From a virus: a stretch of DNA of 64,000 bases. The notes under the pieces were generated by a model. The model saw only the letters and a program-made list of their open reading frames with translations. It ran no database searches and was not told the origin of the DNA. Position numbers and translations under genes: made by a program. Location: IMG/VR virus record IMGVR_UViG_3300028581_000012; one strand, 5' to 3'. Numbering within the stretch: position 1 is the stretch's first letter; every line of letters begins with the position of its first letter. Positions 1-44,518 of the stretch are shown here, one piece after another.

Positions 1-839
1 CCACCACCTAATGTGGTCATACCTCCAATTGATGCCCCAAATCCATATCCATAGTAACTTCCAACACTCTGTACTTTATTATAATCAAATAGTGCGTAGT
101 ACCAAGTGTCATTAGTACCTGCTGATAGATTAGCCAAAGATAAATTCAAATTATCAACACCAAAAGTTTCAGTGTTGGTGGTTACGGTATTTACTGAAGA
201 GCCGGACACATATGTTAATGTATCAGCACTTAACGTACCCCAATAAATTGCAGTTGTCGCTGAAGTCGCAGCACTTGTACTAAACGCATTAACATTTGTA
301 GAAATATAATTTTGGAAGTCAGCGTTTAATGATGACGTACCACCATTAAATGTTGTGTAAGTATTGTAGAAATCTGCAGATAATTGAGCAGGTACCGATG
401 TGATTGTAATGTTACCACTTGTACCTGTTGTACCTGTAAAGTTAAGAGTAATACCTGTTGTGTTACCGGTAGCCGATATTGTTCCTGGGTCAGGATTAGC
501 AATTGTAACAACTGACCAAGACGGACCAGCGTCATACCCTGATAAACCAAGAACTCTTGTTACAAATAACTGATTTGATTGACTTAAATATGATTTTGCA
601 ATATATGACGTTTCATATTTTGGAATTTGTGTGTTTACAAATTTTTCAGGACTTGTTCCACCAAAATAAACTTGGTATTCATCAAAATTTGTGATGAATA
701 TCGGTTCGAATGCAGGTCCTTGTAGAGTTTCCCCAACAATACCTAAAGTTGTTACACCAACGCTTTGTGCTACAAATGTTAAATCTCTTTCTGAAGTATA
801 AACTCCCGGTGAGACGAAAACCTTATTACTAGATGCCAT
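1..839 (-). CDS. Tail sheath protein, N-terminal part (runs off the left edge)
   Basis: Not in ORF track. Manual translation from ATG at 839 gives MASSNKVFVSPGVYTSERDLTFVAQSVGVTTLGIVGETLQGPAFEPIFITNFDEY..., the classic sheath N-terminus (SPGVY..E.D; G...GP..P..I..). Open to the window edge. Confidence 0.9.
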   Translation of the reverse strand, partial: MASSNKVFVSPGVYTSERDLTFVAQSVGVTTLGIVGETLQGPAFEPIFITNFDEYQVYFGGTSPEKFVNTQIPKYETSYIAKSYLSQSNQLFVTRVLGLSGYDAGPSWSVVTIANPDPGTISATGNTTGITLNFTGTTGTSGNITITSVPAQLSADFYNTYTTFNGGTSSLNADFQNYISTNVNAFSTSAATSATTAIYWGTLSADTLTYVSGSSVNTVTTNTETFGVDNLNLSLANLSAGTNDTWYYALFDYNKVQSVGSYYGYGFGASIGGMTTLGG

Positions 840-871
840 TTTAATTATGTTTTAGCTTTTTATGTTTTATA

Positions 872-879
872 TATAAATA
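872..879 (-). promoter_or_regulatory. Putative late promoter TATTTATA upstream of tail sheath
   Basis: Same motif precedes about 17 mostly structural genes in sense orientation. Confidence 0.65.
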
Positions 880-888
880 CATTCAATT

Positions 889-920
889 TTTGCAAAAAAC
901 TATTGACTATAATATATTTA
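889..920 (+). promoter_or_regulatory. Bacteroidetes-type promoter TTTG-N20-TATATTTA
   Basis: Matches the Bacteroidetes -33 TTTG / -7 TAnnTTTG consensus except for the last base. Same spacing is seen at 10899-10930 and 47631-47662. Confidence 0.6.
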
Positions 921-926
921 TCTAAC

Positions 927-952: not shown

Positions 953-965
953 CTACCACATAATT

Positions 966-1127
966 ATGACAAAAACCAAAAAAATAAAAAACTTAAAAAT
1001 ATCTGAAGAGGTACACGATGTATTAAAAAAATACTGCGAAAAAAACGGATTAAAGATGTATAAGTTTTTAGAAAATTTAATAGTTAAAACTTGTGCAAAA
1101 CCTAAAGATATATACGGTGAAGATTAA
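966..1127 (+). CDS. Small ribbon-helix-helix (CopG/Arc-like) DNA-binding protein, 53 aa
   Basis: Manual ORF MTKTKKIKNLKISEEVHDVLKKYCEKNGLKMYKFLENLI...: alternating beta strand (KNLKIS) followed by helix-G-helix. Stop overlaps the convergent gene's stop (TTAA). Confidence 0.7.
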   Translation: MTKTKKIKNLKISEEVHDVLKKYCEKNGLKMYKFLENLIVKTCAKPKDIYGED

Positions 1128-2356
1128 ACTAGGTATGCAACAGTTTTAATCACTGATGTTTCACTAATTAGTTTTTTATAAACTTTAACCACTAAAGTAT
1201 CACCATCATTAACTTGTATTGTTTGTAAATCGTCACCCACATATAATCCGTTTATAAATACTGAAAACGCATTACCACAAGAAGTTGTTGAGTTTGTTGT
1301 GACACCAGTGGGGTTTGAAAATGTTGGTGTTGTCCCACCTTGTACACAATAAGATGATGAAGAACCACTTGTTATTCCCGATACCGTTGCCGGTCCACCA
1401 CCACAAGGGGTAAAAAATAAAGTGTTGGATGTATTAGACGTATATGAAAAATTATAACAATTTGTTAAATTTTCTAACTCAACAACTTTTAAATCCGCAG
1501 TATACCTAATTACCTCTGAAAGTTGGGTGACTCCTGGTAAGAAAGTAAAATCAAAATCAAAATTGTCAGGTCTTGGTGGTTCTATTTCAACTCTTTTACT
1601 TTTAACTTTAGTGTCAACTTCAAACATTGTCAAATATCTTGATATTGCTGGTGATACTTGAAAGTCTTTTTCATCTAATAAAAATCCTTGAAGTGTCATT
1701 TTATAATTTATAATATAATACTTTCTTTTTTCTAAATCTTTAACCGATTCATCAGATACCTCATCTAAAAGAATTGGCATGTAGTGACCGTTAATTTGAG
1801 TGTGAGCTTGAGCAGATGCAAACGTTTGTAAAACGATTTTATTAAACTCGTTGTTTTCTCTCATTCTATTACAAAATAATTTTACGTTAAAAACTAAATC
1901 AACAGCAATAGGTTGAGGTACTTTGTATACGTCGGCCCCTTTTCTTTGACCATCCCAAGTAGGTACGGTAAAATAATTTATTCTTAATTTTTCGGGAACA
2001 TTATACTTACCCCCAACTAATTTACCAAGTTTTACTTCAGGTGTTCTAACAATCGCAACAAATGGTAATGATATATTTTTATCTAAATCTTGAAAGTTCC
2101 AAGTTTGTGTAAATTGAGACCAATTTTGATTTGTAATGATTCTATCGATAGTTGGTACTTTTTTTCCATCAACAGTTAACATTAATCTTTCTTTAACAAA
2201 ATCTAAAAATCCTCTATCTAAATCTGCATGAAGAACTCCTTTTGGTAAATAAGTTCCGTGTCTTGTGACATCATCAAGCATTTCTTCCCTTCTTTCCACA
2301 CCAAATTTTTGTGGAATTAAAGGTAAATGTTTTTTTATTTGTTTAGGAAACGCCAT
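1124..2356 (-). CDS. Tail completion / sheath terminator-like protein (T4 gp15-like), with Ser/Thr/Gly-rich insert
   Basis: Position between neck gene and sheath; pattern P...DL.F.V...C..M...N.....L..F resembles tail terminators. Confidence 0.55.
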   Translation of the reverse strand: MAFPKQIKKHLPLIPQKFGVERREEMLDDVTRHGTYLPKGVLHADLDRGFLDFVKERLMLTVDGKKVPTIDRIITNQNWSQFTQTWNFQDLDKNISLPFVAIVRTPEVKLGKLVGGKYNVPEKLRINYFTVPTWDGQRKGADVYKVPQPIAVDLVFNVKLFCNRMRENNEFNKIVLQTFASAQAHTQINGHYMPILLDEVSDESVKDLEKRKYYIINYKMTLQGFLLDEKDFQVSPAISRYLTMFEVDTKVKSKRVEIEPPRPDNFDFDFTFLPGVTQLSEVIRYTADLKVVELENLTNCYNFSYTSNTSNTLFFTPCGGGPATVSGITSGSSSSYCVQGGTTPTFSNPTGVTTNSTTSCGNAFSVFINGLYVGDDLQTIQVNDGDTLVVKVYKKLISETSVIKTVAYLV

Positions 2357-2358
2357 AA

Positions 2359-10898: not shown

Positions 10899-10930
10899 TA
10901 AATATAAGTGTAAAATCTACTCTTGTCAAA
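10899..10930 (-). promoter_or_regulatory. Bacteroidetes-type promoter TTTG-N20-TATATTTA for DNA polymerase
   Basis: Minus strand reads TTTGACAAGAG...TATATTTA with a 20-nt spacer. Confidence 0.6.
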
Positions 10931-11279
10931 TAATATTGATGTAAAGATTTTCTCTAATTGGTGTGATTAATTCTCCATTTTCCAATACAATTGAAAATTC
11001 ACCTATGAACCTACCTTTAATTTTTGTATCATTTGCATTCCACTTGTAGTATAGATAATATTCCCAAGGGGTGTCAGGATTATTTTTAAATTTTTCTACA
11101 ATGTATGCTTGATTCATAAATATTTTTTGAATTCCGTTGCCTTCATTTTTCATAGAAAACCTAATAATCGCATTGTCTAATATTTCTATAATATTTTTAT
11201 ATGAGTCACTTTTCCCATCAATGACAGGTTCCATTTTTAAAATGGGTAGTGTTGAGTTTTGATTTATAAAAAATTCCAT
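10926..11279 (-). CDS. Hypothetical virion protein (BppU N-domain-like)
   Basis: FFI.Q..T.P.L ... Y.W...DT...G.F.GEF pattern. Confidence 0.45.
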   Translation of the reverse strand: MEFFINQNSTLPILKMEPVIDGKSDSYKNIIEILDNAIIRFSMKNEGNGIQKIFMNQAYIVEKFKNNPDTPWEYYLYYKWNANDTKIKGRFIGEFSIVLENGELITPIRENLYINII

Positions 11280-11299: not shown

Positions 11300-14005
11300 T
11301 TATGGACAAGTGGTTAAAACCGTTGTCACAATTCCATTAGATAAACTAATTAACACATAACTTCCTGAGTTTTGTACAATATACCATCCACTAAATGTGT
11401 AGTAATTACAAGTGGTTGCGTTTCCATAAAATACTGTGCCAACTTGTACTAATGGTGTGTCTATGTAGTTTGGGGAAAAACCACCAGTCGGGGAGCATGT
11501 TGATGCCTGTAAACAAGCAAGACCATTACATGCTGCAGAGTAATCGTTGGTTATAGATACGAAGCTAACACCGAATATTATATTAGAAGATAAGTATGGG
11601 TGAGTTGTTAAACAAGGTACTGGTGTTGGTGGTGGAGGACATAAATTACAATCACCACCTTGACCATAAACTTGACCGTTCCATGTTATAGTTGAAGGAC
11701 TCGCGGTTGGTCCTCCGACAATATAACATTCCCCATTTGTTGCCCCAACAACGTAGTAGTTATCCAAATTCTGATATTGCGAAGGAATTGATATTACTTC
11801 TGCTGCAAATTCACCACCACAAGGAAACGCCATCGCCGTAATATATGCGGGTGTAGGGCTCGGTGTTGGTGTAGGTGTTGGTGTAGGTGTCGGAGTAGGT
11901 GTTGGTGTAGGGCTCGGTGTTGGTGTAGGTGTAGGTAAAGGTAAAGATAAACAATTCGGACACCAATAATCAAATAAATTAAATTGGTCTTTTAATATTC
12001 TAAAATTATGTTGGACTTGAGGGCTAGAAAAAGGTTCTGTATACATTCTAAATTGTGAAATACCACCCATAAAAGAGCCTCCAAAATTTTGTTCAACAAG
12101 TATATCGGTGGTCAATGAATTATAAGTTGACGCTGATAATATTTCGTTTGGAAACGCTTCGGGGTCTTGTTGGTAAGGTCCATTTAAAGGAATACTATTT
12201 CCACTAAAAGTTAAAGTATTAGCACTTGAAGAAATGTTAAAAGTTGGAGTAGTACCGGGTTGTGTACTTATAGTTCCAGATTGATTAGTCAGACCTGTTA
12301 AACTTACTGACGAACCATTACACGAAATATATGATAAAGTTGTAACTCCACTACCAACTGACCATCCCCAATCAGCGCATTCTTTGAAAATTAAATTATC
12401 GTGAAGACCCTGACTACCTCCACCCCAAGAAATGTTAAAAGGAACACCTATTTGTTTTTCTTTTTCACAGTTTAATTCACGAGGTATTATTTCTTCAAAA
12501 TTTTCAATTACCGTAAATAAGTAACCATTTATATATAATTTTAATCTACCGAGTCTATACCAAGTATCATCAAACCATTTACGGTCAAAAATAATTCTAT
12601 AAACTTTATTTTCTTTTGTATCTCCCGAATGAGTTTCAGGTGGCATTATTAAATTATATGAAGTTCCATTTAATATTGATTGATAAGTAACTTCTCTAAT
12701 ATCACCAAGACCTCCAAGATTCAATAAGTCGCATTCTTCTATTGTTGTATACCTTTCAAATACAGCAGTAACCATAACCCATCTATCTTCAGTGATTGTT
12801 CCACATACATAATCACATATATCATAAATTGGTGGTGTGCAAACTTCAGTTATCGTATAACCTGTTTGAAAAGTCACCCCTGTAGTTTCACATACTCCTG
12901 TGGTAACACAGTCTCCTGTGATTTTTATGTATTTTACACATAAACTTGGATTTAAAGGGCAACCGCTAAATCTCATAGAAAGTGCGTTTGATAATACATC
13001 AAATTTTGGGTCCAACGGAGGATTCGGTATTTCTTCGGTACAAGCTCCACCGCAATTACAACCAATATTATGGTAGGCAGTTGTAGAACTCATAGGGTAT
13101 AAATTTACACAGTTAGCGTTTGTATATCCGGTTTCGTAACAAGTACAACTACTTAAACTTGTAAATCCTGATGTTACACGAGTATATCCTGAATCTGATT
13201 CTGGACTTCCACCGGCATAATGATAATATTTGTTTTCTGCTCTTGTACCAAAGTAGAAAAAAGTACCGGCATTATTTGGATATTTAGTGTTTAAATATTC
13301 TTGAGTTGAAGTGTCAATAGAATAAAGGTCGATGTTTCTTGGTTTAATCAAAGTTTCCATTGTCCACCCTTTATTTAGTCTTTCTGGAAAAACTTCATAG
13401 TCATAACCGAATAATTTGTAAAAACCTTGATAAAATCCTCCATATAGTTGTTGGTGATATCCCGCAACCAAATCTACTACGGAAACTATATTATACATAG
13501 ATTGTTTTGGTCTACCATTAAATACAATATTTGGTGAGTTAGTGTAACCTGTGACCATATGCATTTTCATTCTTCTATCGTAGTAGTATGGGTTAAATTT
13601 AAAGTCGTTTCTTATACCCATTGTATAATTCAATGTTTGACCAGTTAAAAGGGTAAATAGTCCGTTGTCAGTTGCTGTCAAACCAACATCACAAGTACCT
13701 GTGAAAGCAGAAATACAATCCAAATCTACATTATTTGGGTTGTAATAATTTTTGGAAACTAATGTTGCACTACTATAAAAATTATTAAATAACATAGATA
13801 CTTGAGGACAGGTGTCGGGATTAGATAAATCATATATAATCGGTAACCTATTGCCGTCATTAATTGCTATCAAATCATCTGAAAAAACTACCTCCTCGTC
13901 GTAGTCTTTTTCATCCCCAACGAGAGTAAAATCAAAATAATTCCCAAAATTTAATTTTTGCGAATATTTTGGCGTAAAATATGAATTAATACTTTGACTT
14001 GGCAT
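11300..14005 (-). CDS. Large Cys-rich virion protein with LamG/concanavalin-like domain and Pro-Thr linker
   Basis: WTMETLIK...LKLYING...F.GGISQFRMY...V.HNF is LamG-like; PT repeat; late motif upstream. Confidence 0.6.
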   Translation of the reverse strand: MPSQSINSYFTPKYSQKLNFGNYFDFTLVGDEKDYDEEVVFSDDLIAINDGNRLPIIYDLSNPDTCPQVSMLFNNFYSSATLVSKNYYNPNNVDLDCISAFTGTCDVGLTATDNGLFTLLTGQTLNYTMGIRNDFKFNPYYYDRRMKMHMVTGYTNSPNIVFNGRPKQSMYNIVSVVDLVAGYHQQLYGGFYQGFYKLFGYDYEVFPERLNKGWTMETLIKPRNIDLYSIDTSTQEYLNTKYPNNAGTFFYFGTRAENKYYHYAGGSPESDSGYTRVTSGFTSLSSCTCYETGYTNANCVNLYPMSSTTAYHNIGCNCGGACTEEIPNPPLDPKFDVLSNALSMRFSGCPLNPSLCVKYIKITGDCVTTGVCETTGVTFQTGYTITEVCTPPIYDICDYVCGTITEDRWVMVTAVFERYTTIEECDLLNLGGLGDIREVTYQSILNGTSYNLIMPPETHSGDTKENKVYRIIFDRKWFDDTWYRLGRLKLYINGYLFTVIENFEEIIPRELNCEKEKQIGVPFNISWGGGSQGLHDNLIFKECADWGWSVGSGVTTLSYISCNGSSVSLTGLTNQSGTISTQPGTTPTFNISSSANTLTFSGNSIPLNGPYQQDPEAFPNEILSASTYNSLTTDILVEQNFGGSFMGGISQFRMYTEPFSSPQVQHNFRILKDQFNLFDYWCPNCLSLPLPTPTPTPSPTPTPTPTPTPTPTPTPSPTPAYITAMAFPCGGEFAAEVISIPSQYQNLDNYYVVGATNGECYIVGGPTASPSTITWNGQVYGQGGDCNLCPPPPTPVPCLTTHPYLSSNIIFGVSFVSITNDYSAACNGLACLQASTCSPTGGFSPNYIDTPLVQVGTVFYGNATTCNYYTFSGWYIVQNSGSYVLISLSNGIVTTVLTTCP
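11849..11935 (-). repeat. Pro-Thr/Ser hexanucleotide tandem repeat (mucin-like linker)
   Basis: Encodes PTPTPTPSPTPTPTPTPTPTPTPTPSPTP. Confidence 0.9.
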
Positions 14006-23640: not shown

Positions 23641-23643
23641 AAA

Positions 23644-24913: not shown

Positions 24914-24915
24914 TT

Positions 24916-29749: not shown

Positions 29750-29781
29750 AAGAACTAAAAATATAAAAATAAAAACAAAAA

Positions 29782-30768
29782 ATGAAAAAAGCATTTATCA
29801 CAGGAATTAATGGACAAGATGGTTCATATTTAACTGAATATCTTTTAGAATTAGGATATGAAGTGCACGGAATTATAAGAAGAAATTCAAGTGTAGAATC
29901 ACAACAAAGTAGGTTTTCAGATGAGGTAAGAAACAAAGTCAATATTCACTACGGAGATTTATTAGACCAAGGCGGATTAGAAAAGTTATTAGACCAAATC
30001 CAACCAGATGAAATCTATAATCTTGCCGCTCAAAGCCATGTTAGAATTAGTTTTGATATCCCACAATTTACCGTTCAAACAAATGCGATTGGTATCTTAA
30101 ACATATTAGAAGCCTACAGACGTTCATGTCCAACTGCTAAATTCTATCAAGCCAGCTCTTCTGAAATGTTTGGAAATTCGGTTGACTCCGATGGGTTCCA
30201 AAGAGAAACAACACCAATGAATCCTGTATCCCCTTATGGTTGTTCTAAAGTATTTGGATATAATATTGTTAGGAACTATAGAAACGCATACAATCTACAC
30301 GCCTGTAACGGTATTCTTTTCAACCACGAATCCCCAAGACGTGGTTCTAATTTTGTTACAAATAAAGTTGTTAAAACTGCGGTAGAAATCAAATTAGGTT
30401 TAACTAACAAATTAGAATTAGGTAATATGGATTCATATAGAGATTGGGGTCACTCAAAAGATTATGTAAGGGCTATGCACATGATAGTCAACCACGAAAA
30501 TCCTGATGATTTTGTTGTTTCAACAATGACTACACACTCCGTAAGAGAAATGGTTGAATATGTATTTAAAAAACTTGATTTGGACTATACAAAATATGTA
30601 ACTCAAAATGAAAAGTTTTTAAGGTCAGAGGAGTTAAAATACTTAAAAGGAGACTCCACAAAAATTAGAACAGTTTTAGGATGGGAACCAGAATATAGTT
30701 TTGAATCATTAATGGATAACATGATTGATGGGTGGATGGAGAAACTATTGAACAAAAAAATATTATAA
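29782..30768 (+). CDS. gmd: GDP-mannose 4,6-dehydratase
   Basis: ITGINGQDGSYL, NLAAQSHV, YQASSSE, SPYG.SK, ILFNHESPRRG..FVT, RDWGH. Confidence 0.97.
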   Translation: MKKAFITGINGQDGSYLTEYLLELGYEVHGIIRRNSSVESQQSRFSDEVRNKVNIHYGDLLDQGGLEKLLDQIQPDEIYNLAAQSHVRISFDIPQFTVQTNAIGILNILEAYRRSCPTAKFYQASSSEMFGNSVDSDGFQRETTPMNPVSPYGCSKVFGYNIVRNYRNAYNLHACNGILFNHESPRRGSNFVTNKVVKTAVEIKLGLTNKLELGNMDSYRDWGHSKDYVRAMHMIVNHENPDDFVVSTMTTHSVREMVEYVFKKLDLDYTKYVTQNEKFLRSEELKYLKGDSTKIRTVLGWEPEYSFESLMDNMIDGWMEKLLNKKIL

Positions 30769-30769
30769 T

Positions 30770-31504
30770 ATGACAAGAAAAAAAACAACAACAGATGAAC
30801 CTGTTATACCGCAGTCTTTTACAAAAAAAGACTTTATTAATTCAGTAATAAAAAGAAAACAAAAAAGTAAATTTTTATCTGATAACCAAAAAGACTACTA
30901 CGACATATTAGTAAGTAGTCAAATTACAATTTGTTCAGGTCCTGCAGGTGTTGGTAAAAGTTACATAGCAATGAAAGCTGCTGTTGATTTACTTATGGAC
31001 CCAACTAACACTTACGAAAAAATTATAATTGTAAGGCCGGCGGTTGAAGCAGAAGAAAAGTTAGGTAGTTTACCTGGTAATTTGGAAGAAAAATTGGACC
31101 CATATATTTTTCCATCTTATTACCTATTAAATAAAATTATTGGGAAAGATACAAGAGAAAAACTAAAAGAGGCTGAAATTATTGAAGTGTTTGCATTGGC
31201 ATATATGCGAGGAATGAATATCGATAATTCTATTTTAATTTTTGAAGAAGCACAAAATGCAACCCCAAACCAAATTAAATTACTATTGACAAGGATTGGT
31301 TATAATAGTAAATTTTTTATATCGGGGGATTTAGAACAAACTGACCGATATAAAGATAAAAAACAATCAGGGTTATACGACGCACTTCAAAGGTTTCAAA
31401 ATGTTAATGACATTGGTATATATGACTTTAGAAATGCTAAAAACGTTAGAAATCCACTTATTGGTAAAATTCTAGAAAGGTATGACGAAGAAAATCGGGA
31501 TTGA
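30770..31504 (+). CDS. phoH: PhoH-family ATPase
   Basis: GPAGVGKS, RPAVE...LG.LPG...EK..PY, AYMRG, EEAQN, LTRIG, GD..Q.D. Confidence 0.95.
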   Translation: MTRKKTTTDEPVIPQSFTKKDFINSVIKRKQKSKFLSDNQKDYYDILVSSQITICSGPAGVGKSYIAMKAAVDLLMDPTNTYEKIIIVRPAVEAEEKLGSLPGNLEEKLDPYIFPSYYLLNKIIGKDTREKLKEAEIIEVFALAYMRGMNIDNSILIFEEAQNATPNQIKLLLTRIGYNSKFFISGDLEQTDRYKDKKQSGLYDALQRFQNVNDIGIYDFRNAKNVRNPLIGKILERYDEENRD

Positions 31505-32132
31505 AGTTAATGGTGTTTTAAGAAATACTTTAGGTAAAATACGCCAAACTTATGAAAAATTTATGATTGAAAATAATTCCGAAGAAAAAACATTTATGTT
31601 GGATTCATCGGGAAATACTGAATCTATTGTTGAAAATGAATCTTTTGAATATAAGTTATTAGAAAATGTGGACAGTTTAAATTTGATGTCCCATTTTGCC
31701 TTTAAATCAGAAGACGAATTATATGATTTTTTATATCAAGAGTTTGCAATGCAAATTTTTGGTCATGCTGAATCTACAGAGATGCATACTTTTCATACAC
31801 TAAATGATGTTTATATTAAATATAGAAACAGTAATGACTTTTTAATATTGTCAGATGAAATAGGTAAATCAAAACCGGCAACTCTTTTCTTTTTATCAAA
31901 GTTTGGATGTCAATTAGAAAAAGTAAAATTTTATTCAGATACAACTAAAAACTCCATATGGGATGAGGTTGATATTTTAATAACCGCAAACCCAAACTTA
32001 ATTGATGAACACCCATCAGATAAAGTTATAATTAAATTTAAAACTGATTATAACAAAAAAAATAAATCAAAACACGAAATCAGTTCACTTGGTGAGTTAG
32101 ATGAATGTTTACAAAAATTAGGAATATGTTAG
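31482..32132 (+). CDS. HAD-fold 5'(3')-nucleotidase-like protein, catalytic motif degenerate
   Basis: IGIEVNGVLRN resembles I.ID.DGVL.D; DILI and YN motifs later. Confidence 0.5.
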   Translation: MTKKIGIEVNGVLRNTLGKIRQTYEKFMIENNSEEKTFMLDSSGNTESIVENESFEYKLLENVDSLNLMSHFAFKSEDELYDFLYQEFAMQIFGHAESTEMHTFHTLNDVYIKYRNSNDFLILSDEIGKSKPATLFFLSKFGCQLEKVKFYSDTTKNSIWDEVDILITANPNLIDEHPSDKVIIKFKTDYNKKNKSKHEISSLGELDECLQKLGIC

Positions 32133-32407
32133 AATTTTTAGGAGAACAGTATTATATTGACGTACAAGAAATTGATAATAAAATAGCAATCCCATATACG
32201 TTAGAATCAATTGAGATTGATGGTCAAAATGAACCACATATAAGTGTTGCAAAGTGGGAAGTATATAAAAATTTAATAGATGTTATATTATCAGAAAGAG
32301 AAGAACTTGATGAAAATTTGGGTATTCACAGTGCTAAAAATTTATCAATCCCTTTTAAGTTTGCATTTAATACACTATTAATAAACAACATAATAAAAAA
32401 GTTATAA
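32126..32407 (+). CDS. Hypothetical protein
   Basis: ORF track; start more likely ATG 32126, coupled to the upstream stop. Confidence 0.65.
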   Translation: MLEFLGEQYYIDVQEIDNKIAIPYTLESIEIDGQNEPHISVAKWEVYKNLIDVILSEREELDENLGIHSAKNLSIPFKFAFNTLLINNIIKKL

Positions 32408-32410
32408 AAA

Positions 32411-33475
32411 ATGGAATTAGACAAAATCAAAAAAATCGAAACCTCGGTTGAAAAACTTGGGGACAAATCTGCTAGAATTTATTTTTTAGTACAGGATACT
32501 AAAGGAAATCCTAAAGCGGGTATTGCTTACATTTATCAAATGGCAATGTCATTAAGAAATAAAGGATTTAATGTGAAAATGATTCACGAAACAAAAGACT
32601 ACCAAGGAGTTGAAGAATGGTTAGGAAAAGAGTATATGGAAATTGAACATTTACCTATTGAAGGTCAGAACCTTCCAATTTCACCTGAAGACTTTGTTGT
32701 TATTCCTGAGCTATACGCTCACGTTATGGAACAATTAAAGAACTATCCTTGTGGTAAATTAGTATTATGTCAAGCTTATGATTATATGTTGGAAACATTA
32801 CCTCCTGGTATTTCTTGGGCTAATTATGGATTTATAAAATGTATTACAACATCTGAATTCCAAAAAGAATATATTCGTTCAGTATTTAAAAACGTTAGTG
32901 TTGATATTGTTGAACCTGTTGTTTCTGAAATTTTCACAAAAAAAGAAAAACCTTCTAAACCAATCGTTTCTATTCATTGTAGAGAACCAAGAGATACTGC
33001 AAAAATCATTAAAAGTTTCTATATGAAATATCCACAATATAGATGGTTTACTTTTCGTGATATGAAAAACATTAGTCAAACAGACTTTTCTAAATTTTTA
33101 AAAGAGTCTTTTGTATCTGTTTGGATTGATAGAGAATCTGGATTTGGTACTTTCCCAATTGAAAGTATGATTTCAAATACACCGGTAATTGGTGTGGTTC
33201 CAAACTTAAAACCTGATTGGATGAATGAAAATAATGGTGTTTGGACTTACTCTTTTAATGAGGTTATTGATATTTTGGCAAACTTTTCACAAAACTGGCT
33301 TGAAGATAATATTAGTGAAGATTTATACACTAATATGACTGAAACGGGAGAAAAGTTTCAAAACAAACCTTTGTTTGATGAAAAAGTGGAAACATTATTT
33401 AATGAATATTTTCAAGTAAGAAAAGAAATGTTTAGTCAACAATTGGAAAAATTAAAAATAACTGAAGAAAATTAA
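32411..33475 (+). CDS. GT-B glycosyltransferase-like protein
   Basis: P.AG...IY, DFVVIPE, ESGFGTFPIESM...TPVIG. Confidence 0.75.
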   Translation: MELDKIKKIETSVEKLGDKSARIYFLVQDTKGNPKAGIAYIYQMAMSLRNKGFNVKMIHETKDYQGVEEWLGKEYMEIEHLPIEGQNLPISPEDFVVIPELYAHVMEQLKNYPCGKLVLCQAYDYMLETLPPGISWANYGFIKCITTSEFQKEYIRSVFKNVSVDIVEPVVSEIFTKKEKPSKPIVSIHCREPRDTAKIIKSFYMKYPQYRWFTFRDMKNISQTDFSKFLKESFVSVWIDRESGFGTFPIESMISNTPVIGVVPNLKPDWMNENNGVWTYSFNEVIDILANFSQNWLEDNISEDLYTNMTETGEKFQNKPLFDEKVETLFNEYFQVRKEMFSQQLEKLKITEEN

Positions 33476-33479
33476 AAAT

Positions 33480-34292
33480 ATGGAAAACTTAGAAAAATTA
33501 GATGTATCGGTAATTTTACCAATAGATTCGGCAAAAAATGTAATGTTCAATGATTTATTTAATCGAGCAATCATTTCAATTCAATCACAAACTAAACCAA
33601 TTAATGAACTTGTAATTGTACATTCAGGAGAAGAGTTGTTGAAAAATACACTTGATAATTTTGATTTCAGTGGTCTTACTGTGACATTAGTTGAAAACGA
33701 AAATGAATTTGATTTTTGTTCACAGATTAATATTGGAGTAAAACACGCTAAAAGTAGTTGGATTTCCATTTTAGAATTTGACGACGAGTATTCAACAATT
33801 TGGTTTAAAAACTTTGATAGATATGAAAAGGCTTATCCTGAGGTAGATGCGTTTTTACCAATTGTAATTGACACAGACGAGAAAGGAGTATTTGTTGGGT
33901 TTACTAATGAAGCAACATTTGCAGTAAGTATGAATTCAGAAATTGGTTATTTAAATAATGACACATTATTAAATTATCAAAACTTCCAATCAAGTGGAAT
34001 GGTTATTAGAAAATCAGTATTTGAAGATAACGGAGGTTTTAAACCAAGTATGAAATTAACATTTGTTTATGAATACCTTTTAAGATTGACATATAATTCT
34101 GTTAAAATTATGACAATCCCAAGAATTGGGTACAAACATATGAACTTAAGACCAGGTTCAATATTTTGGAAATACAAAAACGGAGAAAATAAAATTACAG
34201 ATGATGAGGTATCTTTTTGGATTGAGTCGGCCAAAAAAGAACATTTCTTTACGACCGATAGAAACATAAAATTTGAACCGCAAAGTGTATAA
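33480..34292 (+). CDS. GT2-like glycosyltransferase
   Basis: VSVILP, N.GV..A...WISILEFDD, Y...LRL. Confidence 0.75.
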   Translation: MENLEKLDVSVILPIDSAKNVMFNDLFNRAIISIQSQTKPINELVIVHSGEELLKNTLDNFDFSGLTVTLVENENEFDFCSQINIGVKHAKSSWISILEFDDEYSTIWFKNFDRYEKAYPEVDAFLPIVIDTDEKGVFVGFTNEATFAVSMNSEIGYLNNDTLLNYQNFQSSGMVIRKSVFEDNGGFKPSMKLTFVYEYLLRLTYNSVKIMTIPRIGYKHMNLRPGSIFWKYKNGENKITDDEVSFWIESAKKEHFFTTDRNIKFEPQSV

Positions 34293-37410: not shown

Positions 37411-37615
37411 ATTATCATCTGAAAAAGTATTGGAAATTTTATCAGAGTATAAAAAAACACCAAATAAAGATTTGATTGCGGTTTTAGATTTTCTATATGA
37501 AGATTTTGAAAAAACAAAAGACCTAATTATTAAATTAACCAATCATTTGGATACAACGGAAAATAGTTACAACAAAATTTTAGAAGAAATAAATAAAAGA
37601 ACAAATCAATTTTAA
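37394..37615 (+). CDS. Hypothetical protein
   Basis: ORF track. Confidence 0.6.
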   Translation: MEKHSKLSSEKVLEILSEYKKTPNKDLIAVLDFLYEDFEKTKDLIIKLTNHLDTTENSYNKILEEINKRTNQF

Positions 37616-39207
37616 TGTCAAACGAATTACCACTTCCCAATAGTCAAATAATTTTCTTTGGTGTTTGTGTAGACAATCAAGACCCATTGATGCTTGGAAG
37701 AATAAGATGTCATCCAATACAAGAAAACATCGAGGCGATGAAAGGCACCATTAAAGGGTTTAATGAAAAAAGTAAAAGTACTTTAAATGGTCCTTGGGGT
37801 GAAAAAGACCCATTTATATTTTTACCATTTTTACCATATTTTGTTAATCAAGTACCTAAAAAGGATGAAATGGTTATGATTATATACTTTAATAACCAAC
37901 TTACAAAGGGTAGAAATAGGTTTTATTTAATTGGACCATACTCATCCCCCACAACGATTGAAAATGAAGATAATAGGTCATCAAGGACTCATACAGATAT
38001 GGGGTATCAAAACTCAAGAGAAAAATTACCAAATATCAAAGACCCTTATTCAAAAGAATACCCAAATAACAAAAATGCGGGAGTTTTTCCAGAACCTGAT
38101 GACATATCAATTAATGGTAGAGGTACGGCAGATTTTATATTAAAAAATAATGATTTGTTATTAAGAGCAGGTAAACACAAACCTTTTAAAACAGGGGAAA
38201 TACCTGAATATGATGACAACAGAGCTTTTATTCAATTATCAAAATTTACAAACAAACTTTCATACGGTGCTCCTGAATCTTATGTCAGATTAGAAAGACA
38301 AGAACAACAATTAAAATACTTAATTGAATATGATGTCTATAACCCTGAAAGTGCTCCTCAAATTTTTCAAGGAGATGTAACAATTTATCAATTACCTGAT
38401 AAAGAATCGAGGTCAACTAAAACAAGTCAATTTGAGTGGGATACTGAAATCACCGGTTCAACTTTATCCAAAGTCAGAATTGTAAAAATAGACCAACCTT
38501 TGGGTATTGATGATTTTGCAAAATTTGTATCTGACCAAATAGTTGCACTTAAAGATACTCCTGAACTAATGATTTCTAATTTACCGGCAAATGGTACGGT
38601 AAATCAAAACAACAACTCGGCAAATGAGTTACAATTTCCTTTTTATTACAGACCGTCAAAAAGAATTAGAAATATAATAAAATCTTTACCAAGTCAAAAC
38701 ACAATTACTGATTTTACAAATATGAATCAGTTAATATCAAAAGTTTTAATTACAACAACCGATGTTAGCCCTGGTTATGGGTTAGTTTTGGATAGAAAAG
38801 TAAGCCCTGAGTTACCATTCTTACCAAAAAGAGAAGTTTTCACACCAATTAAAACAGAACAAATTGATAATACAGTAGGTCTTATTGGAGCGTCCCAACT
38901 TTATCTACTATCACACGACACATCAATACCCGGAAAAGGTAAAATATCTTTACCTGGTTCAGTTTCGGGAATCAGTCCAACACAAGTTTTTGATGAGGTG
39001 GAACCTAAAACGTCTTCTATGGTTAGAGGTGAAGAACTATTGGAACTATTAGAATCTATTGTTGGATTTTTAGTTAGTCACGTTCACCCATATCCATTAT
39101 TACCTCCGTCAGGGGTTGCTTATGATGGAACTAGTATTGACGATTTAACCAAAAAAATGTTAGAGGCATATCAAAAAGTTTTAAACAGTAATATTCGAAT
39201 TAACTAA
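37615..39207 (+). CDS. Baseplate hub/spike protein (T4 gp5/VgrG-like OB-fold; C-terminal HxH tip)
   Basis: GVCVDNQDPLMLGRIRC, VP...E.V, GRGTAD, V.GE.L...L, HVHP. Confidence 0.75.
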   Translation: MSNELPLPNSQIIFFGVCVDNQDPLMLGRIRCHPIQENIEAMKGTIKGFNEKSKSTLNGPWGEKDPFIFLPFLPYFVNQVPKKDEMVMIIYFNNQLTKGRNRFYLIGPYSSPTTIENEDNRSSRTHTDMGYQNSREKLPNIKDPYSKEYPNNKNAGVFPEPDDISINGRGTADFILKNNDLLLRAGKHKPFKTGEIPEYDDNRAFIQLSKFTNKLSYGAPESYVRLERQEQQLKYLIEYDVYNPESAPQIFQGDVTIYQLPDKESRSTKTSQFEWDTEITGSTLSKVRIVKIDQPLGIDDFAKFVSDQIVALKDTPELMISNLPANGTVNQNNNSANELQFPFYYRPSKRIRNIIKSLPSQNTITDFTNMNQLISKVLITTTDVSPGYGLVLDRKVSPELPFLPKREVFTPIKTEQIDNTVGLIGASQLYLLSHDTSIPGKGKISLPGSVSGISPTQVFDEVEPKTSSMVRGEELLELLESIVGFLVSHVHPYPLLPPSGVAYDGTSIDDLTKKMLEAYQKVLNSNIRIN

Positions 39208-39230: not shown

Positions 39231-40712
39231 ATGTCAATTTACAGGTCATACTTCGATAAAAGTGATACAATAATACAAAATAGTTACACAAACACGGGAA
39301 GAAACCCGATTGTGGAATTATTTTATGGTCGCGTAGATAATTTAAGTGCGCCAATAGGATTTAGTCGTTATATTTTTGATATAGATTTAACAGACCTCCA
39401 ATCAAGAATTTCAGATAAAATTATTACTTCTGGCTGTGGCACAAATTTTACACATACCCTTCGTATGACAAATACTTCGTACTTTGATGAAAGTTTAATT
39501 AACGATAAAACATCACAAGGTAGAAGAAGGGCCACGTCTTTTGATTTAGTGTTATTTAGAATACCCAAAACATCAGGAACCACAGGACTTGCTCAAAATT
39601 GGGATAGTGGTGTTGGTTATGACTATTATGATTATCAAGTAACAAATTTAAATGATAGGTCATTTTCACAAAGACCCTCAAATTGGTATGAAGCAACAAT
39701 TATAAGTGGGTGGAGTTTAAATGGGATTTATGATAATACAAATTCGCAAACGGGTGGATTTAGTGGATTAAATTATTCGGCATTGACTATTGTTGATACA
39801 CAACATTTTGAATTTGGTGATGAAGATATTGAATTTGATATGTCAAGTGAAATAAATAATATTTTGAATGGAACACTAACTGGGGTAACAGGATGGGGTG
39901 TTGCATTTTATCCTGATGTGGAAAATATTAGTGGTATGACTGAAAACTATTCCGTTGGATTCTTTTCACCACATACCCAAACATTTTACGAACCATTTTT
40001 AGAAACAAATTATGACGATTTAATACTTGATGATAGAAATAAATTTTATTCAGGAAATAATAATGAACTTTATTTATATGTTTATGAAAACGGTAATGCG
40101 GTTAATTTAGACGCACTTCCAACAGTAGACATATTGGATTTAAACCAAAACCCACTGACCGGATTTACAGGATTATCAACATGTCAAGTAACAAAGGGTG
40201 TTTATAAATGTGATATAAATAATTTAACAGCGTCTACCGTACCTTGTTTATACTACGACGTATGGAAAGGTTTATCTGCAAACACCGTATCCATATCAGA
40301 TGTGACTTTGGAATTTGCACTACTACCTAAAAATGGTAATTTTCAAATAGGTTCAGTCACCCAACAACCAAAAATATATGGTTTTGAATTTAACGGCATA
40401 AGACAAAATGAAAAAGTTTTAAATACGGATATTAGAAAAGTTAACGTAATAATAAAACAAGCATATTCTTCTAATACGCCACTCACAACTGTTGAGGCAT
40501 ACTATAGAATATATGTTAGAGAAGGGGCAAGTACTGAAGTACAAGTACAAGATTGGACAAGAATTAATGAAGTTCCTGATGGGTTTTATTTCATTTTTGA
40601 TACAACTGATAAAATTCCAAATGAATATTTTGTCGATATTAAAGTTGTTAGTGATAGAAATGTGGACACTTATAAAAGAGAATTACAATTTCAAATTGTA
40701 AATAAAAAATAA
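39231..40712 (+). CDS. Virion structural protein (unknown function)
   Basis: Late motif upstream; W..G.G.D and FFS..T...Y.P.LE patterns; S/T/G-rich. Confidence 0.6.
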   Translation: MSIYRSYFDKSDTIIQNSYTNTGRNPIVELFYGRVDNLSAPIGFSRYIFDIDLTDLQSRISDKIITSGCGTNFTHTLRMTNTSYFDESLINDKTSQGRRRATSFDLVLFRIPKTSGTTGLAQNWDSGVGYDYYDYQVTNLNDRSFSQRPSNWYEATIISGWSLNGIYDNTNSQTGGFSGLNYSALTIVDTQHFEFGDEDIEFDMSSEINNILNGTLTGVTGWGVAFYPDVENISGMTENYSVGFFSPHTQTFYEPFLETNYDDLILDDRNKFYSGNNNELYLYVYENGNAVNLDALPTVDILDLNQNPLTGFTGLSTCQVTKGVYKCDINNLTASTVPCLYYDVWKGLSANTVSISDVTLEFALLPKNGNFQIGSVTQQPKIYGFEFNGIRQNEKVLNTDIRKVNVIIKQAYSSNTPLTTVEAYYRIYVREGASTEVQVQDWTRINEVPDGFYFIFDTTDKIPNEYFVDIKVVSDRNVDTYKRELQFQIVNKK

Positions 40713-40737: not shown

Positions 40738-41361
40738 ATGGCAGATTATTTTTATACGGTTGAAAATTGTGTTGACCAAAACGATACAGGAGTTTTTAGT
40801 TCAACCACACTATACTCGGTTGGTCAAGTTGTATCATTATTTACCCCATCAATTGGGTGTTACACAATAACTGAGGTTAATTTGGTTGGGGTTGCAACTT
40901 TAAATTTTGTATCGGTATATACAACTTGTTTAGAATGTATACAAACTACTGGAGGGGTTTTTGAATTCGAAAATTGTGCAAATCCTTCCGACCAACCATC
41001 AATAGACGTTATTGAATTTCCAATAGTTCCACAACTCAATCAAGTTTATAGTATATTGACAAGCTCCGGCACTTTAAACTGTTTTACTTTTCTTAGTTAT
41101 GAATCAGTTGGTAGTGCGACAGAAGGATTAGTAAGTATAGAAGGACCATATGTTGATTGCCCCCAATGTACAGTTTTAAGTTTACCTCAATCAGCGAATA
41201 CTGAAGTATTTGTTTGTGAATATATATGTGTGACTGGAGGTACAGGAAGTTCTGTTGTTGTTGTAACACCTCCACACCCACAATATTCTAACACTCAAGG
41301 TAATTCTGTAACACAATTGAACATGATTACACTCGGAGGTTTTAACGGATTAAATTCTTAA
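40738..41361 (+). CDS. Cys-rich repeat protein, probably virion decoration
   Basis: Two ENC...C.T...C..C repeats; late motif upstream. Confidence 0.55.
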   Translation: MADYFYTVENCVDQNDTGVFSSTTLYSVGQVVSLFTPSIGCYTITEVNLVGVATLNFVSVYTTCLECIQTTGGVFEFENCANPSDQPSIDVIEFPIVPQLNQVYSILTSSGTLNCFTFLSYESVGSATEGLVSIEGPYVDCPQCTVLSLPQSANTEVFVCEYICVTGGTGSSVVVVTPPHPQYSNTQGNSVTQLNMITLGGFNGLNS

Positions 41362-41363
41362 AT

Positions 41364-41828
41364 ATGAAAAATTTATCACAAATAATTAATAAAGTTCTAA
41401 GAGAAGAACACGAAAATAAAAGTTCTAGATATATGTTCTTTTCAAATTTAGAACAGATGAGAAGACAATGTGATTTGTTACTTGATTTGGACCACTCTAT
41501 GATTGAAGAAATTCTTGAAAATGGCCACGATTGGGCTCAAGACCATATTTCTGAAGCTAAAAATAATATGGACCAAGTTTTTGATTTTTTAATGAATGAA
41601 GTTAACGCAGATTTCCAAAAAGACGATATGTACGACAACGAAGAAATGATGATGCAAGAAGGTCGTAAAAAAACAGGTACAAAACTTTGCGCTAGGGGAT
41701 TGGCGTCCGCCAAAGCAAAATATGAGGTTCACCCCTCAGCCTATAGTAATGGACACGCAATACAAGTATGTAAAGGAAAAATTAAAGGACTTGACGGAAA
41801 GAGAAGATGTTCTGGTGCTTTTTGTTAA
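41364..41828 (+). CDS. Hypothetical protein: acidic N-region plus basic Cys-containing PSAY domain
   Basis: KLCARG..SAKAKYEVHPSAYSNG.A.QVCKG. Confidence 0.65.
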   Translation: MKNLSQIINKVLREEHENKSSRYMFFSNLEQMRRQCDLLLDLDHSMIEEILENGHDWAQDHISEAKNNMDQVFDFLMNEVNADFQKDDMYDNEEMMMQEGRKKTGTKLCARGLASAKAKYEVHPSAYSNGHAIQVCKGKIKGLDGKRRCSGAFC

Positions 41829-42559
41829 ATAGACCTTAATATTTTATTTATAAGAATTTCTAAGGACTCATTTTGAGTCCTTTTCTTTTTTGGTTTGTAT
41901 GATGTCATTATTGGTTTTTGACCTTTACCTGTTTGTGTATCTTGTTTTTCAGCCCTTCTTTTTTGTTGACATGCAGCCCTTTTTTCAGATGTACTCATTT
42001 TACCTGCAACCCCAGCAGCTCTACATTTCGGATAAGAACCTTTAGATGTGTCACTTCGACCACAAGGAGGATGTTTACCATCTACTTTTCTACAAATATC
42101 AACCCAAGGACCTTTTGGTTGTGAAGAACCTTTAGGTTTCTTTTTTTTACCAAACCATACGGCTAAATCTTCATTCAATGGAATTTTGTTTAAATCATAC
42201 CATTCATTCATTTTTTTTCCGATTACTTCAATTGGGACTATTCTTAACTTACTGTCGGCATTTTGATTTATAATACCTCCATCCTCATCATTTTGTTTTT
42301 TGTGTTTTTTATTATAATGGGATATTTTTTTTGATTTTTGTTCAAGGTTTTTAACATTTTTTCTATTAGATTCCAATGAACCATCATAACTATCGTATTC
42401 TAAATCTGCATTAAAATATTTAGAAACTTTTGTTTTAAAAGGGCCTAATTCACTTTCTTCCCAATCAATTTCACCCATAGTTAAAGGACCATTATAATAT
42501 CCAGCATATCTACTTGAAGTTATTTCTTTTATGACTTTTTGAATAATATTTTCTATCAT
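41825..42559 (-). CDS. Hypothetical protein with basic C-terminal domain (L..WF...WVDI...CGR.....YPKC)
   Basis: ORF track; motif type recalled from large phages (DUF5872-like, unverified). Confidence 0.65.
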   Translation of the reverse strand: MIENIIQKVIKEITSSRYAGYYNGPLTMGEIDWEESELGPFKTKVSKYFNADLEYDSYDGSLESNRKNVKNLEQKSKKISHYNKKHKKQNDEDGGIINQNADSKLRIVPIEVIGKKMNEWYDLNKIPLNEDLAVWFGKKKKPKGSSQPKGPWVDICRKVDGKHPPCGRSDTSKGSYPKCRAAGVAGKMSTSEKRAACQQKRRAEKQDTQTGKGQKPIMTSYKPKKKRTQNESLEILINKILRSI

Positions 42560-42580
42560 AATTATAAATATTATATAAAT

Positions 42581-42609
42581 AAAAAAAGGTCAGATTTCTC
42601 TGACCTTTT
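42581..42609 (-). terminator. Intrinsic terminator after major capsid gene
   Basis: Minus strand AAAAGGTCAGA-GAAA-TCTGACCTTTTTTT. Confidence 0.9.
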
Positions 42610-42631
42610 CTTTTATTAACCTTTAAATTGA

Positions 42632-44518
42632 TTATCTCAATTCTTGTAAGTCGAATGAACGAACACCATCAACTGTGATACGTCCGTAGAAACGGTTGTT
42701 AACCATTTTCTTAGCGTATCTTGTCATTATACCTTTAATAGGTGTAAAGTTGAATGGGTTGTACATTGTAGGTGTTAATTGAAGTGGAACATATGGTGCA
42801 TATACGTAACCAGTATCAAGAAGTGATGTACCTTTGTGTCCTAACAATACTTGGTTTGCTGGGAAGTAAGGGTCACGATATACTTGGTAACGACCTGCTA
42901 ATGTACCAACTCTTTCAATACCCATGTTGTATTGGTCTTGCTCAGGAGATGCGTTTGATACGTGGAAGTACTCAAGGTCATCAAAGATTGCAGAAACCTC
43001 AGAAGAAACAACAATCCAGTTAGCTCCACCACGAAGTGTAGACTTGTGGATTTGTGCTGACAATTGGTTGATTGCTGTAATCAAAGTTTGGTTCCAGTCT
43101 TTTTGAGTGTAAGAAGTTGTGTTAGACAATCTTCTCCATCCGTTGTAATCCCAACGTAAGTTCCAAGCCGCTCCTTTACGAAGGTCACGAAGAATCTCAC
43201 GGTCAATTTCTGCAGCAACTTGCTCAGACAATAAAGCTGTTAATTCAGCTTCAGCGTCGATGTTGTGGAATGCAGAAACGTCTTGTGCCAATTCAGGAGA
43301 CCATTGTGCTCTTAGTTTTCTTTCTGTCACAGATACAGTAACTGACTCAAGGTCGAAAGAAACCTCACCAATTTGGTCTTCGAATTCAAGTTCTTTGTAA
43401 CGTCTGTAAGCCGCCTTGATAACTGTGTTAGCACCTGCTCCAGACCAAGCACTTGTAAGAGTTGCTCCTGAATAACCATCAATAGTTTGTGCGTTAGAAC
43501 AAGATACACATACTGGTACTTGTGCGTCGATTTCTAAATATATAAAACCTGTTTGAGAACAGATATTATCATAAGAACCTCCGTTACCTGCTGTAGAACT
43601 TGCAAATCCACTACCAAAAGGGGCTGAAGTACTTGTTGAAGTTGGTCCTACAATACCTTGACCATATTTTTGAGTAACCACTCTGAATAATAATGGTGTG
43701 TATGTAGATGTCCCAAGGTTAGCAGCTGCTGCTGAACTTTCAGTATACAATACCAAATTAGATAAAAACGCTTCGTTATCAATTTCTTGACCATCAGGTC
43801 CAATTAATTTACCAACACCCGCAGAAGAAAATCCTGACATAGCTACAAGGATTTTTCTATACTCAACACCCGCAATTGCACTTACAGCTGTTGTATATGC
43901 AGATGCGATAAGACTTCCATTTGACCAAGCAACTGTTGGTGTAGAACCTGTTACAGTTACAAACTGACCTTTTGAGTAATCGAATAAACCAGATGGATTC
44001 AATCCTGGTTCAGAACCTTCATAAAATAAATCATAAAGACTTCTAGTATAAGAAGGATTGTAATCACCATTTGTGTTATTATAACCATCGTTAGTTTGTC
44101 CTTGCATACTTGGTGAACCGATTGGTCCATAATGTGTTCCTGAAGTGATACCCAAATTATTTTGAACAGTACCACCAGAGTATCCTTGGATTTTAGGTAC
44201 AAAATAGAACAATTTACCAATAGGTAAGTTCATTGCTTGTACAGAAACTAAATCGTTAGCCAACAATTTAGAGAATACACGTCTTACGATAGGGAAAACT
44301 ACAGTTTCAAAAGAACCTGAGCTATCTGTAGACGCAGCTTCGTTAATTAGGTGAGACGCTTGGTTTTCATATAACTGTGCCATGTTCTCTTTGATGTGTC
44401 CTTTAAGACCGTCTAGGAATCCTAATCTATCCCATTTGTTAATTGTATCTTCTTTGATAACTTTAAGGTGTTTTAACCCGATGTTACCAACAAGACCTGA
44501 TTCTAATAATGCTCCCAT
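42632..44518 (-). CDS. Major capsid protein (T4 gp23-like) with large insertion
   Basis: P.VRRVF..L.AND.VSVQAM..P.G, RKLRAQWSPELAQD..A.H.IDAEAEL..LLSE..AAEIDREI, YAPYVPL, G.MTRY. Confidence 0.97.
   Translation of the reverse strand: MGALLESGLVGNIGLKHLKVIKEDTINKWDRLGFLDGLKGHIKENMAQLYENQASHLINEAASTDSSGSFETVVFPIVRRVFSKLLANDLVSVQAMNLPIGKLFYFVPKIQGYSGGTVQNNLGITSGTHYGPIGSPSMQGQTNDGYNNTNGDYNPSYTRSLYDLFYEGSEPGLNPSGLFDYSKGQFVTVTGSTPTVAWSNGSLIASAYTTAVSAIAGVEYRKILVAMSGFSSAGVGKLIGPDGQEIDNEAFLSNLVLYTESSAAAANLGTSTYTPLLFRVVTQKYGQGIVGPTSTSTSAPFGSGFASSTAGNGGSYDNICSQTGFIYLEIDAQVPVCVSCSNAQTIDGYSGATLTSAWSGAGANTVIKAAYRRYKELEFEDQIGEVSFDLESVTVSVTERKLRAQWSPELAQDVSAFHNIDAEAELTALLSEQVAAEIDREILRDLRKGAAWNLRWDYNGWRRLSNTTSYTQKDWNQTLITAINQLSAQIHKSTLRGGANWIVVSSEVSAIFDDLEYFHVSNASPEQDQYNMGIERVGTLAGRYQVYRDPYFPANQVLLGHKGTSLLDTGYVYAPYVPLQLTPTMYNPFNFTPIKGIMTRYAKKMVNNRFYGRITVDGVRSFDLQELR

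Follow-up and report, generated by a model that had tools for sequence, protein, structure and literature searches.

Motif-bearing proteins of the window

The stretch of DNA considered here (the window) comprises 64,000 nucleotides of the IMG/VR virus record IMGVR_UViG_3300028581_000012, and is the reverse strand of bases 11269-75268 in that 91,387-bp record. It has a GC content of about 30% and comes from an uncultured freshwater T4-like jumbo phage, several of whose putative virion proteins carry a short pattern of a hydroxyl residue, a small residue, any residue and threonine. The original prediction held that this pattern, in the form [S/T]-G-x-T, is the acceptor site of a phage-encoded O-glycosylation pathway that coats capsid and tail. 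Close relatives of the phage have contigs of 272-297 kb that are rated 93-99% complete, and a distant relative has 345 kb with terminal repeats; by comparison with these, the record is part of a T4-like jumbo phage genome some 290 kb long. Many relatives are present in IMG/VR, and the motif-bearing clade is a large group of aquatic T4-like jumbo phages of roughly 290-345 kb.

Richest in the motif is a 901-residue (aa) protein of ConA/LamG fold (11300..14005, − strand), in which ten [ST]GxT copies (TGQT, three of TGYT, SGYT, SGFT, TGVT, SGDT, SGVT and TGLT) are joined by three of SAxT. It is probably a fibre or receptor-binding protein; its N-terminal 690 aa are conserved and are joined through a Pro-Thr linker to a C-terminal domain that is variable and rich in Cys. 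The major capsid protein (MCP; 42632..44518, −) is of the gp23 type (Pfam Gp23, E 1.8e-73, 248.6 bits against a curated cut-off of 24.4) and has three [ST]GxT copies, at residues 114, 190 and 350, to which the wider form [ST][GA]xT adds residue 206. Of the tail sheath the window holds the N-terminal 279 aa of 1067 aa (3..839, −), with three [ST]GxT and four SAxT, the remainder lying past the window start; nine of the ten motif copies of the full protein fall within its first 360 residues, and the Pfam sheath domains span residues 787-1058 only. A 493-aa protein with no assigned fold, adjoining the head genes (39231..40712, +), has four [ST]GxT and three [ST]AxT (whole-protein shuffle p = 0.0016), and a 410-aa protein upstream of the sheath gene (1124..2356, −) has two copies in a C-terminal extension rich in Cys, Ser and Thr. 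One copy is found in a 530-aa protein (37615..39207, +), and a 207-aa protein (40738..41361, +) has SANT and TGGT near its C-terminus and so a single [ST]GxT; taken alone, its count is not significant in shuffles. The gp19-like tail tube has no copy at all.

The labels of MCP and sheath that the original prediction had given are supported by Pfam profiles and that of LamG by the fold, and no Pfam or PHROGs match backs 'hub' for the 530-aa protein or 'tail-completion' for the 410-aa protein; the 901-, 493- and 207-aa proteins likewise match neither collection. A domain shared among the motif-rich proteins was sought by all-against-all BLASTP and none was found.

A recount reproduced every motif number of the original prediction exactly, including the single [ST]GxT of the 942-aa polymerase. 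Across the ten putative virion proteins 24 [ST]GxT copies stand against 5.4 +/- 2.3 in whole-protein shuffles, and against 6.4, 7.0 and 7.7 when shuffling is confined to windows of 40, 20 and 10 residues; 24 copies were reached in 0 of 1000 shuffles. The excess thus persists when S, T and G composition is controlled for, locally as well as overall. The remaining 54 proteins are at expectation (5 copies against 5.5). The excess is also specific to the order of residues, being 4.4-fold for the motif itself and onefold for the reordered forms TxG[ST], [ST]xGT, G[ST]xT and [ST]TxG, all of which are at expectation in the virion set. When 16,000 gapped triplets were enumerated, TGxT (15 against 2.9) and SAxT (11 against 1.35) ranked directly after artefacts of the Pro-Thr linkers, and the true motif is therefore [ST]-[GA]-x-T, of which the virion set has 36 copies against 8.4 expected. 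The form first proposed was therefore enriched as claimed but too narrow, the second position taking alanine as well as glycine. N-x-S/T is not enriched in the virion set (46 against 46.6), and the Bacteroidetes sequon D-(S/T)-(A/I/L/V/M/T), from which the motif had been said to differ, is depleted there (7 against 13.7). On the putative outward-facing capsid, sheath and lectin-like fibre proteins the excess ranges from 4 to 12 times chance.

Conservation, outgroups and position of the sites

In 31 homologues of the 901-aa protein the motif recurs in the same columns, with S and T and also G and A interchanging and x free. The N-terminal part of this family has 391 copies where 32 are expected, spread over 33 alignment columns (7-12 for reordered controls), and it has conserved motif columns that are absent from the query itself. 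The MCP family (74 homologues) has 335 copies against 77 in its insertion and 23 against 21 in its conserved core; the 493-aa family (25 sequences) has 133 against 21, in 20 columns against 7-10 for controls; and the 410-aa family (17 sequences) has 36 against 7. A weak excess is seen in the 530-aa family (17 against 7), with column numbers near those of controls. Five unrelated families hence carry the excess, namely the MCP insertion, the LamG protein, the 493-aa protein, the 410-aa protein and the N-terminal part of the sheath, and no excess was found in the families of the polymerase, helicase, portal, TerL, protease and glycosyltransferases (GTs), nor in the MCP core. A 1968-aa protein adjoining the LamG homologue on a 59.8-kb contig of a distant relative (L209:4091-9997, +) has 68 [ST][GA]xT against 20.7.

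A tblastn search of 50,697 phage records gave no match to the 901-aa protein. A profile search of 1.84 billion representatives gave 809 relatives, and the deep-family statistics use the best 150 of these 809, which are cluster representatives at 50% identity. Here the motif stands at 4-10 times expectation in every rank bin, with four reordered controls averaging 1.0. Position 0 prefers S (4.5x) and T (2.9x), all other residues being below 1; position 1 prefers G (4.9x) and A (3.8x), with nothing else above 1.1; and position 3 prefers T (4.35x), with C at 2.3x, S at 1.07x, all others below 1 and V and I depleted. Position x is unconstrained, and the flanks show weak preferences for V, F or L at −1, L or I at +4 and N at +5. 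So compact a signature, as read from these alignments, resembles an enzyme recognition site. [ST][GA]xV and V[GA]xT are depleted in the families, and so beta-branched residues are no substitute for the hydroxyl residues. Of the motif serines 26% use the codon AGT against a background of 23%, which is close enough to place selection on the protein and not the DNA, and a DNA-level motif is thereby ruled out.

Outside the clade, the nearest annotated relatives of the MCP are those of Microcystis phage Mel-JY01, the Flavobacterium immuto phages and Rhodothermus RM378, at 36-42% identity. Mel-JY01 has 4 copies in its MCP against 1.4, 1 in its sheath against 1.5, and large tail proteins at or under expectation, and immuto has 1 against 1.2 in the MCP and 3 against 2.7 in the sheath, with a weak hint in a tail fibre (10 against 4.0) and one small structural protein (5 against 1.35). 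Thirty structural proteins of T4 have 18 [ST]GxT against 13.8 and 28 [ST][GA]xT against 26.8, and triplet enumeration over their 13,373 residues gave nothing below p = 2e-4. Since T4, Mel-JY01 and immuto are without excess, it is not general to T4-like virions, and such a generic property is ruled out as its source. The immuto structural proteins (L143) do over-represent a different pattern, G-T-x-T (33 against 11.4, p 1.6e-7), and not [ST][GA]xT, and lineage-specific short Ser/Thr/Gly motifs may be a wider phenomenon.

The motif was picked by eye after reading, in proteins rich in S, T and G, and might on that account reflect nothing more than chance or composition. This is opposed by the local shuffles and the reordered controls, by the look-elsewhere enumeration of triplets and by the T4 null, and also by the replication in the 150 representatives at 4-10x where controls give 1.0, and an artefact is accordingly ruled out, at a probability that we consider negligible.

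The original prediction also placed the copies in insertions and loops, and this is borne out in three proteins. The MCP matches its relatives in two pieces, which exposes a lineage-specific variable insertion at about residues 111-370, seen by comparison with T4, immuto and Mel-JY01; in the sheath the copies lie in the non-core N-terminal part; and in the LamG protein they lie mostly in predicted coil. Residues 1-690 of the last were modelled from 79 diverse sequences with a predicted local distance difference test (pLDDT) of 83.8 and a predicted template modelling score (pTM) of 0.85, the deeper alignment being needed because one of 31 close homologues gave a pLDDT of only 35. The jelly-roll core is a ConA-like/LamG lectin (Z 13-15, root-mean-square deviation 3.0-3.5 over 195-220 residues, VIA-align), and carbohydrate-binding modules and phage tailspikes are among its fold matches, as are the lectin-like halves of the binding domains of clostridial toxins. 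No Foldseek match in PDB was found at E <= 0.001, and no Pfam LamG match reached threshold. Large loop insertions break up the core. Ten sites fall in regions modelled with confidence, and at nine of these the motif begins in coil; the position-3 Thr opens a strand or bridge in the case of T102, T124 and T295, and at T378 it comes second in its strand. Three more sites sit in a low-confidence lineage-specific insertion.

A Pro-Thr/Pro-Ser linker at residues ~690-730 parts the LamG part of this protein from its Cys-rich domain, and a comparable linker occurs in a 2186-aa tail protein upstream of the window. In other systems such linkers are classic regions of O-glycosylation.

The positions of the sites bear on a purely structural account, in which the motif would be a loop-to-strand cap or a bulge in beta-rich outer domains and no modification would occur. 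The frequent opening of a strand by the position-3 Thr fits such a cap, as do the hydrophobic residue favoured at −1, the G-S-T counterpart that one MCP site has in T4 gp23, and the fixing of sites across deep divergence, with query positions 121, 152, 272, 375 and 381 bearing the motif in 56-81 of about 100 representatives. However five unrelated folds carry the motif and the virion proteins of T4, Mel-JY01 and immuto do not. Nor can V or I replace T at position 3, or S and T at position 0, which is unexpected of a simple strand cap, and the acceptance of Ala as second residue fits poorly with a Gly-dependent turn.

Homologues that keep the fold and lose the motif speak against it further. 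P0019 (607 aa) is 41% identical to the 901-aa protein over 545 residues (E 1e-127) and keeps all core blocks with 0 motif copies, and so the fold does not need the motif; TGQT is replaced by VNSP and TGYT by NTFA, the remaining alignable sites are lost too, and Thr makes up 4.9% of the protein. About ten representatives have 0-2 copies. In a FastTree phylogeny of 122 members the motif-poor state needs at least eight independent changes, the motif-poor members being nested within motif-rich clades and often on longer branches. Median retention of the eight most conserved motif columns is 0.62, and P0019 and P0122 keep 0 of 7. Other motif-less homologues include P0119, P0144, P0046, P0105 and P0129. 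The contigs of the motif-less homologues themselves are short, at 4-8 kb; in the viral collection no close relative was found for P0019, P0046 or P0144, nor for P0019 in the metagenome collection. With these losses of all copies in same-fold homologues set against it, we regard the structural account as unlikely.

Glycosyltransferases, candidate readers and neighbouring genes

A glycan island of 17 kb (17.5-34.3 kb) encodes eight GT-like proteins together with sugar-nucleotide enzymes, some of the GT Pfam matches being below the curated cut-off. The original prediction had counted about nine GTs; a GT4-BAHT fusion is encoded outside the window. Two are clade core genes. The first encodes a GT-B (GT4/RfaG-like) enzyme of 405 aa (17543..18760, +), which has a weak Pfam GT1 match and is placed among viral RfaG-like GTs by the Atlas; of the 57 loci that surround the LamG gene 49 encode it, and so do 7 of 7 motif-bearing records, with identities of 54-79%. 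The second encodes a 568-aa fusion of GT2_5 (PF13712) and GT4 according to Pfam (20414..22120, +), present at 43 of the 57 loci, with its GT2_5 domain in 8 of 8 motif-bearing records. The motif-bearing records searched include complete genomes of 297 and 345 kb. Both genes are syntenic with the LamG gene even where the polymerase is only 43-46% identical, and neither the 405-aa GT-B nor the GT2_5 domain was found in the complete genomes of Mel-JY01 and immuto, which among cultured phages are the nearest outgroups. Co-occurrence of motif and GT genes across related phages is therefore seen for both core GTs, in all motif-bearing records searched and in neither outgroup. The 405-aa GT-B is the leading candidate for reading the motif, and the GT2_5 enzyme a second candidate.

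Most of the island is variable between relatives. Its variable part (22121..34292, +), assigned by Pfam and NCBIfam, encodes as GTs a GT2, a GT11, two NodZ-like proteins, a GT10 and a second GT2, and besides these a methyltransferase, a hexapeptide acyltransferase, a GDSL esterase, a DegT aminotransferase, a GDP-mannose 4,6-dehydratase and a WbuC cupin, with PhoH interspersed. The first two genes of this part are common to only 12-14 of the 57 relatives, at 38-66% identity.

The motif might alternatively be read by a trans-acting factor that is not a GT, such as a kinase, an acyl- or methyltransferase or an assembly chaperone, or might form low-affinity ligand-binding patches on the surface. 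The same statistics (the compact motif, the surface location, the en-bloc losses) apply to this account equally, the island does encode a methyltransferase, a hexapeptide acyltransferase and a GDSL esterase, and Cys is enriched 2.3x at position 3. Against it, no kinase or other protein-modifying enzyme was found among the clade-core genes examined, and two hydroxyl positions in a GT-rich genome point more simply to O-glycosylation, and so an account of this kind seems to us rather improbable.

A more specific possibility is that the motif is the acceptor of a TibC/Aah-type heptosyltransferase (BAHT) fused to GT4. Such a fusion, of 711 aa, is encoded 6 kb past the window end (L140:3141-5276, −); its residues 379-702 match TibC (4rap) at E 2e-63, with an alignment that covers the iron-finger region and in which the four-Cys iron finger appears conserved. 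Relatives have the BAHT domain within open reading frames of 755-1535 aa. The TibC acceptors in TibA peptides are serines with G-G or A-A after them (PMC4358343), a preference that resembles S-[GA]. However TibC, whose acceptors lie in beta-helix loops, modifies Ser alone, at sites that lack Thr at +3, whereas the present motif has S or T at position 0, G or A at position 1, a free position 2 and a required Thr at +3. In addition BAHT was found in neither of two complete genomes that bear the motif, G005 (345 kb, terminal repeats, 100%) and G007 (297 kb, 99%), while Mel-JY01 encodes it and shows no excess in its virion proteins. The enzyme is thus not needed for the motif and does not suffice for it, and this phyletic pattern largely rules it out as the reader. 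The gene also stands tail-to-tail with that of a collagen-repeat fibre with CBM5/12 modules (L140:883-3024, +; 6-10 kb beyond the window end), and the fibre is the more likely substrate, and likely the true one. A BAHT reader is thus very improbable and, like the chance artefact, essentially excluded.

Directly downstream of the LamG gene lies the gene of a 117-aa protein (10926..11279, −) present at 57 of 57 LamG loci and syntenic in the distant loci L208 and L209. It is a paralogue (BLASTP E 6e-16, 34% identity) of a 118-aa protein whose gene (L140:523-879, +) precedes that of the collagen-like fibre outside the window, and the two may be fibre adaptors or chaperones.

Elsewhere in the window are a T4-type portal (48869-51640, −) with an intein (Pfam Intein_splicing) that contains an HNH domain, an SNF2-type helicase (2928-5792, +) also with an intein (Pfam Intein_splicing), a prohead protease, TerL and a B-family polymerase. 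A Fe/Mn superoxide dismutase (5805-6524, +), a full-length Hsp70 (58045-59898, −; 865 bits) and a ClpB-like double AAA+ chaperone (60030-62111, +) are encoded too. Beside the MCP gene lies that of a 496-aa protein (44553-46043, −) with four to five tandem 16-residue repeats rich in Met, Asp and Glu, of the pattern D-Y-N-E-G-M-G-H-M-D-E-D-M-Y-E-M, and with no [ST][GA]xT copy; by its sequence it resembles a scaffold or prohead-core protein. Late-promoter-like sites of the form TATAAATA number 20 against 12.8 and are not significantly enriched, and late expression of the motif-protein genes is for this reason not argued from TATAAATA. The window differs at four bases from the genome sequence file within 57537-57657.

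A candidate O-glycosylation sequon and its precedents

Taken together, the order-specific excess, its recurrence in unrelated families and its losses indicate that the motif is most likely a short linear signal under positive maintenance, clade-wide, on putatively exposed parts of virion proteins. What the signal is for is a further step. We give about an even chance to [ST]-[GA]-x-T being the acceptor or recognition signal of a phage-encoded modification, which would most likely be O-glycosylation. The enrichment, the location of the sites, the GT genes and the co-occurrence of the core GTs with the motif agree with the acceptor site first proposed, and from the sequences we infer the glycosylation itself: that a modification exists, that it is a sugar, which enzyme adds it and to which residue.

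In such a pathway a soluble cytoplasmic GT would recognise a hydroxyl residue with a small residue after it and Thr at +3, within a loop that often runs on into a beta-strand, and would add the first sugar during or after folding. Either the GT-B enzyme (17543-18760) or the GT2_5 enzyme (20414-22120) could be this first GT, the variable island with its fucosyl- and perosamine-type genes may then extend the glycan, and the outcome would be a sugar coat on capsid, sheath and fibres. In its fullest form the proposal is that [ST]-[GA]-x-T is an O-glycosylation sequon of four residues, that a soluble GT of the clade core (the 405-aa GT-B or GT2_5) reads it, that the modification coats the capsid, sheath and lectin-like fibres of widespread freshwater and marine jumbo phages, and that a hypervariable downstream island diversifies the glycan as O-antigen loci do; among tailed phages this would be the first system of protein glycosylation to be directed by a sequon. 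This whole we hold tentatively, as somewhat short of an even chance.

Several observations weigh against glycosylation at the motif. Two outer proteins show no excess, namely the 2186-aa protein with 4 copies and the collagen-like fibre with 3 where about 6.6 are expected. The motif is lost by degrees, retention running from 0 to 8 of 8 conserved columns, and with such intermediates the pattern is no strict all-or-none one. Site 350 of the MCP is in part ancestral, T4 gp23 having NGST there. The co-occurrence with the core GTs sets one clade against two outgroups, a single phylogenetic contrast in which any clade-core gene would co-occur as well, and the 405-aa GT-B gene lies among exonuclease and dUTPase genes, so its product could act on DNA or on a host glycan.

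If glycosylation of these proteins is real, then virion glycosylation would be common in abundant aquatic jumbo phages, beyond actinobacteriophages, and with a short sequon one could predict from sequence which phage proteins are glycosylated. Two viral families of uncharacterised GTs would turn out to be protein GTs with a portable tag, useful for glyco-engineering, and the coat could influence host range, grazing and aggregation as well as how stable the particles are in water. Even without a sugar, a four-residue pattern kept on unrelated outer proteins and lost en bloc in some lineages needs explaining.

Among known systems, the MCP of chloroviruses is glycosylated at atypical short sequons by virus-encoded machinery that includes a GDP-mannose 4,6-dehydratase and fucose chemistry. 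That system is N-linked and belongs to a eukaryotic virus, whereas here N-x-S/T shows no enrichment. The general O-glycosylation of Bacteroidetes also uses a short O-sequon, and does so in the presumed host phylum, but is periplasmic, and its sequon is depleted in the virion set. TibC and Aah, acting on TibA and AIDA-I, are cytoplasmic O-glycosyltransferases that hyper-modify Ser before small residues, and a homologue is encoded in this phage; unlike the present motif, however, their sites are Ser only and without Thr at +3, and BAHT genes do not follow the motif in their distribution. For virion glycosylation by the phage's own GTs there is a precedent in mycobacteriophages (Freeman et al. 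2023, cited in PMC12619734). As that citing account describes them, the mycobacteriophage glycans are at the C-termini of capsid and tail-tube subunits, in contrast to the internal loops and insertions with a four-residue motif that are the candidates here, where the tube is without motif and the MCP copies are internal (residues 114-350). The hosts and the phage families are unrelated, and the present case is known from sequence alone. With the mycobacteriophages, so far as the same account goes, the jumbo phages would nevertheless share phage-encoded GTs, proposed capsid and tail targets assembled in the cytoplasm, and a presumed coat on the virion surface.

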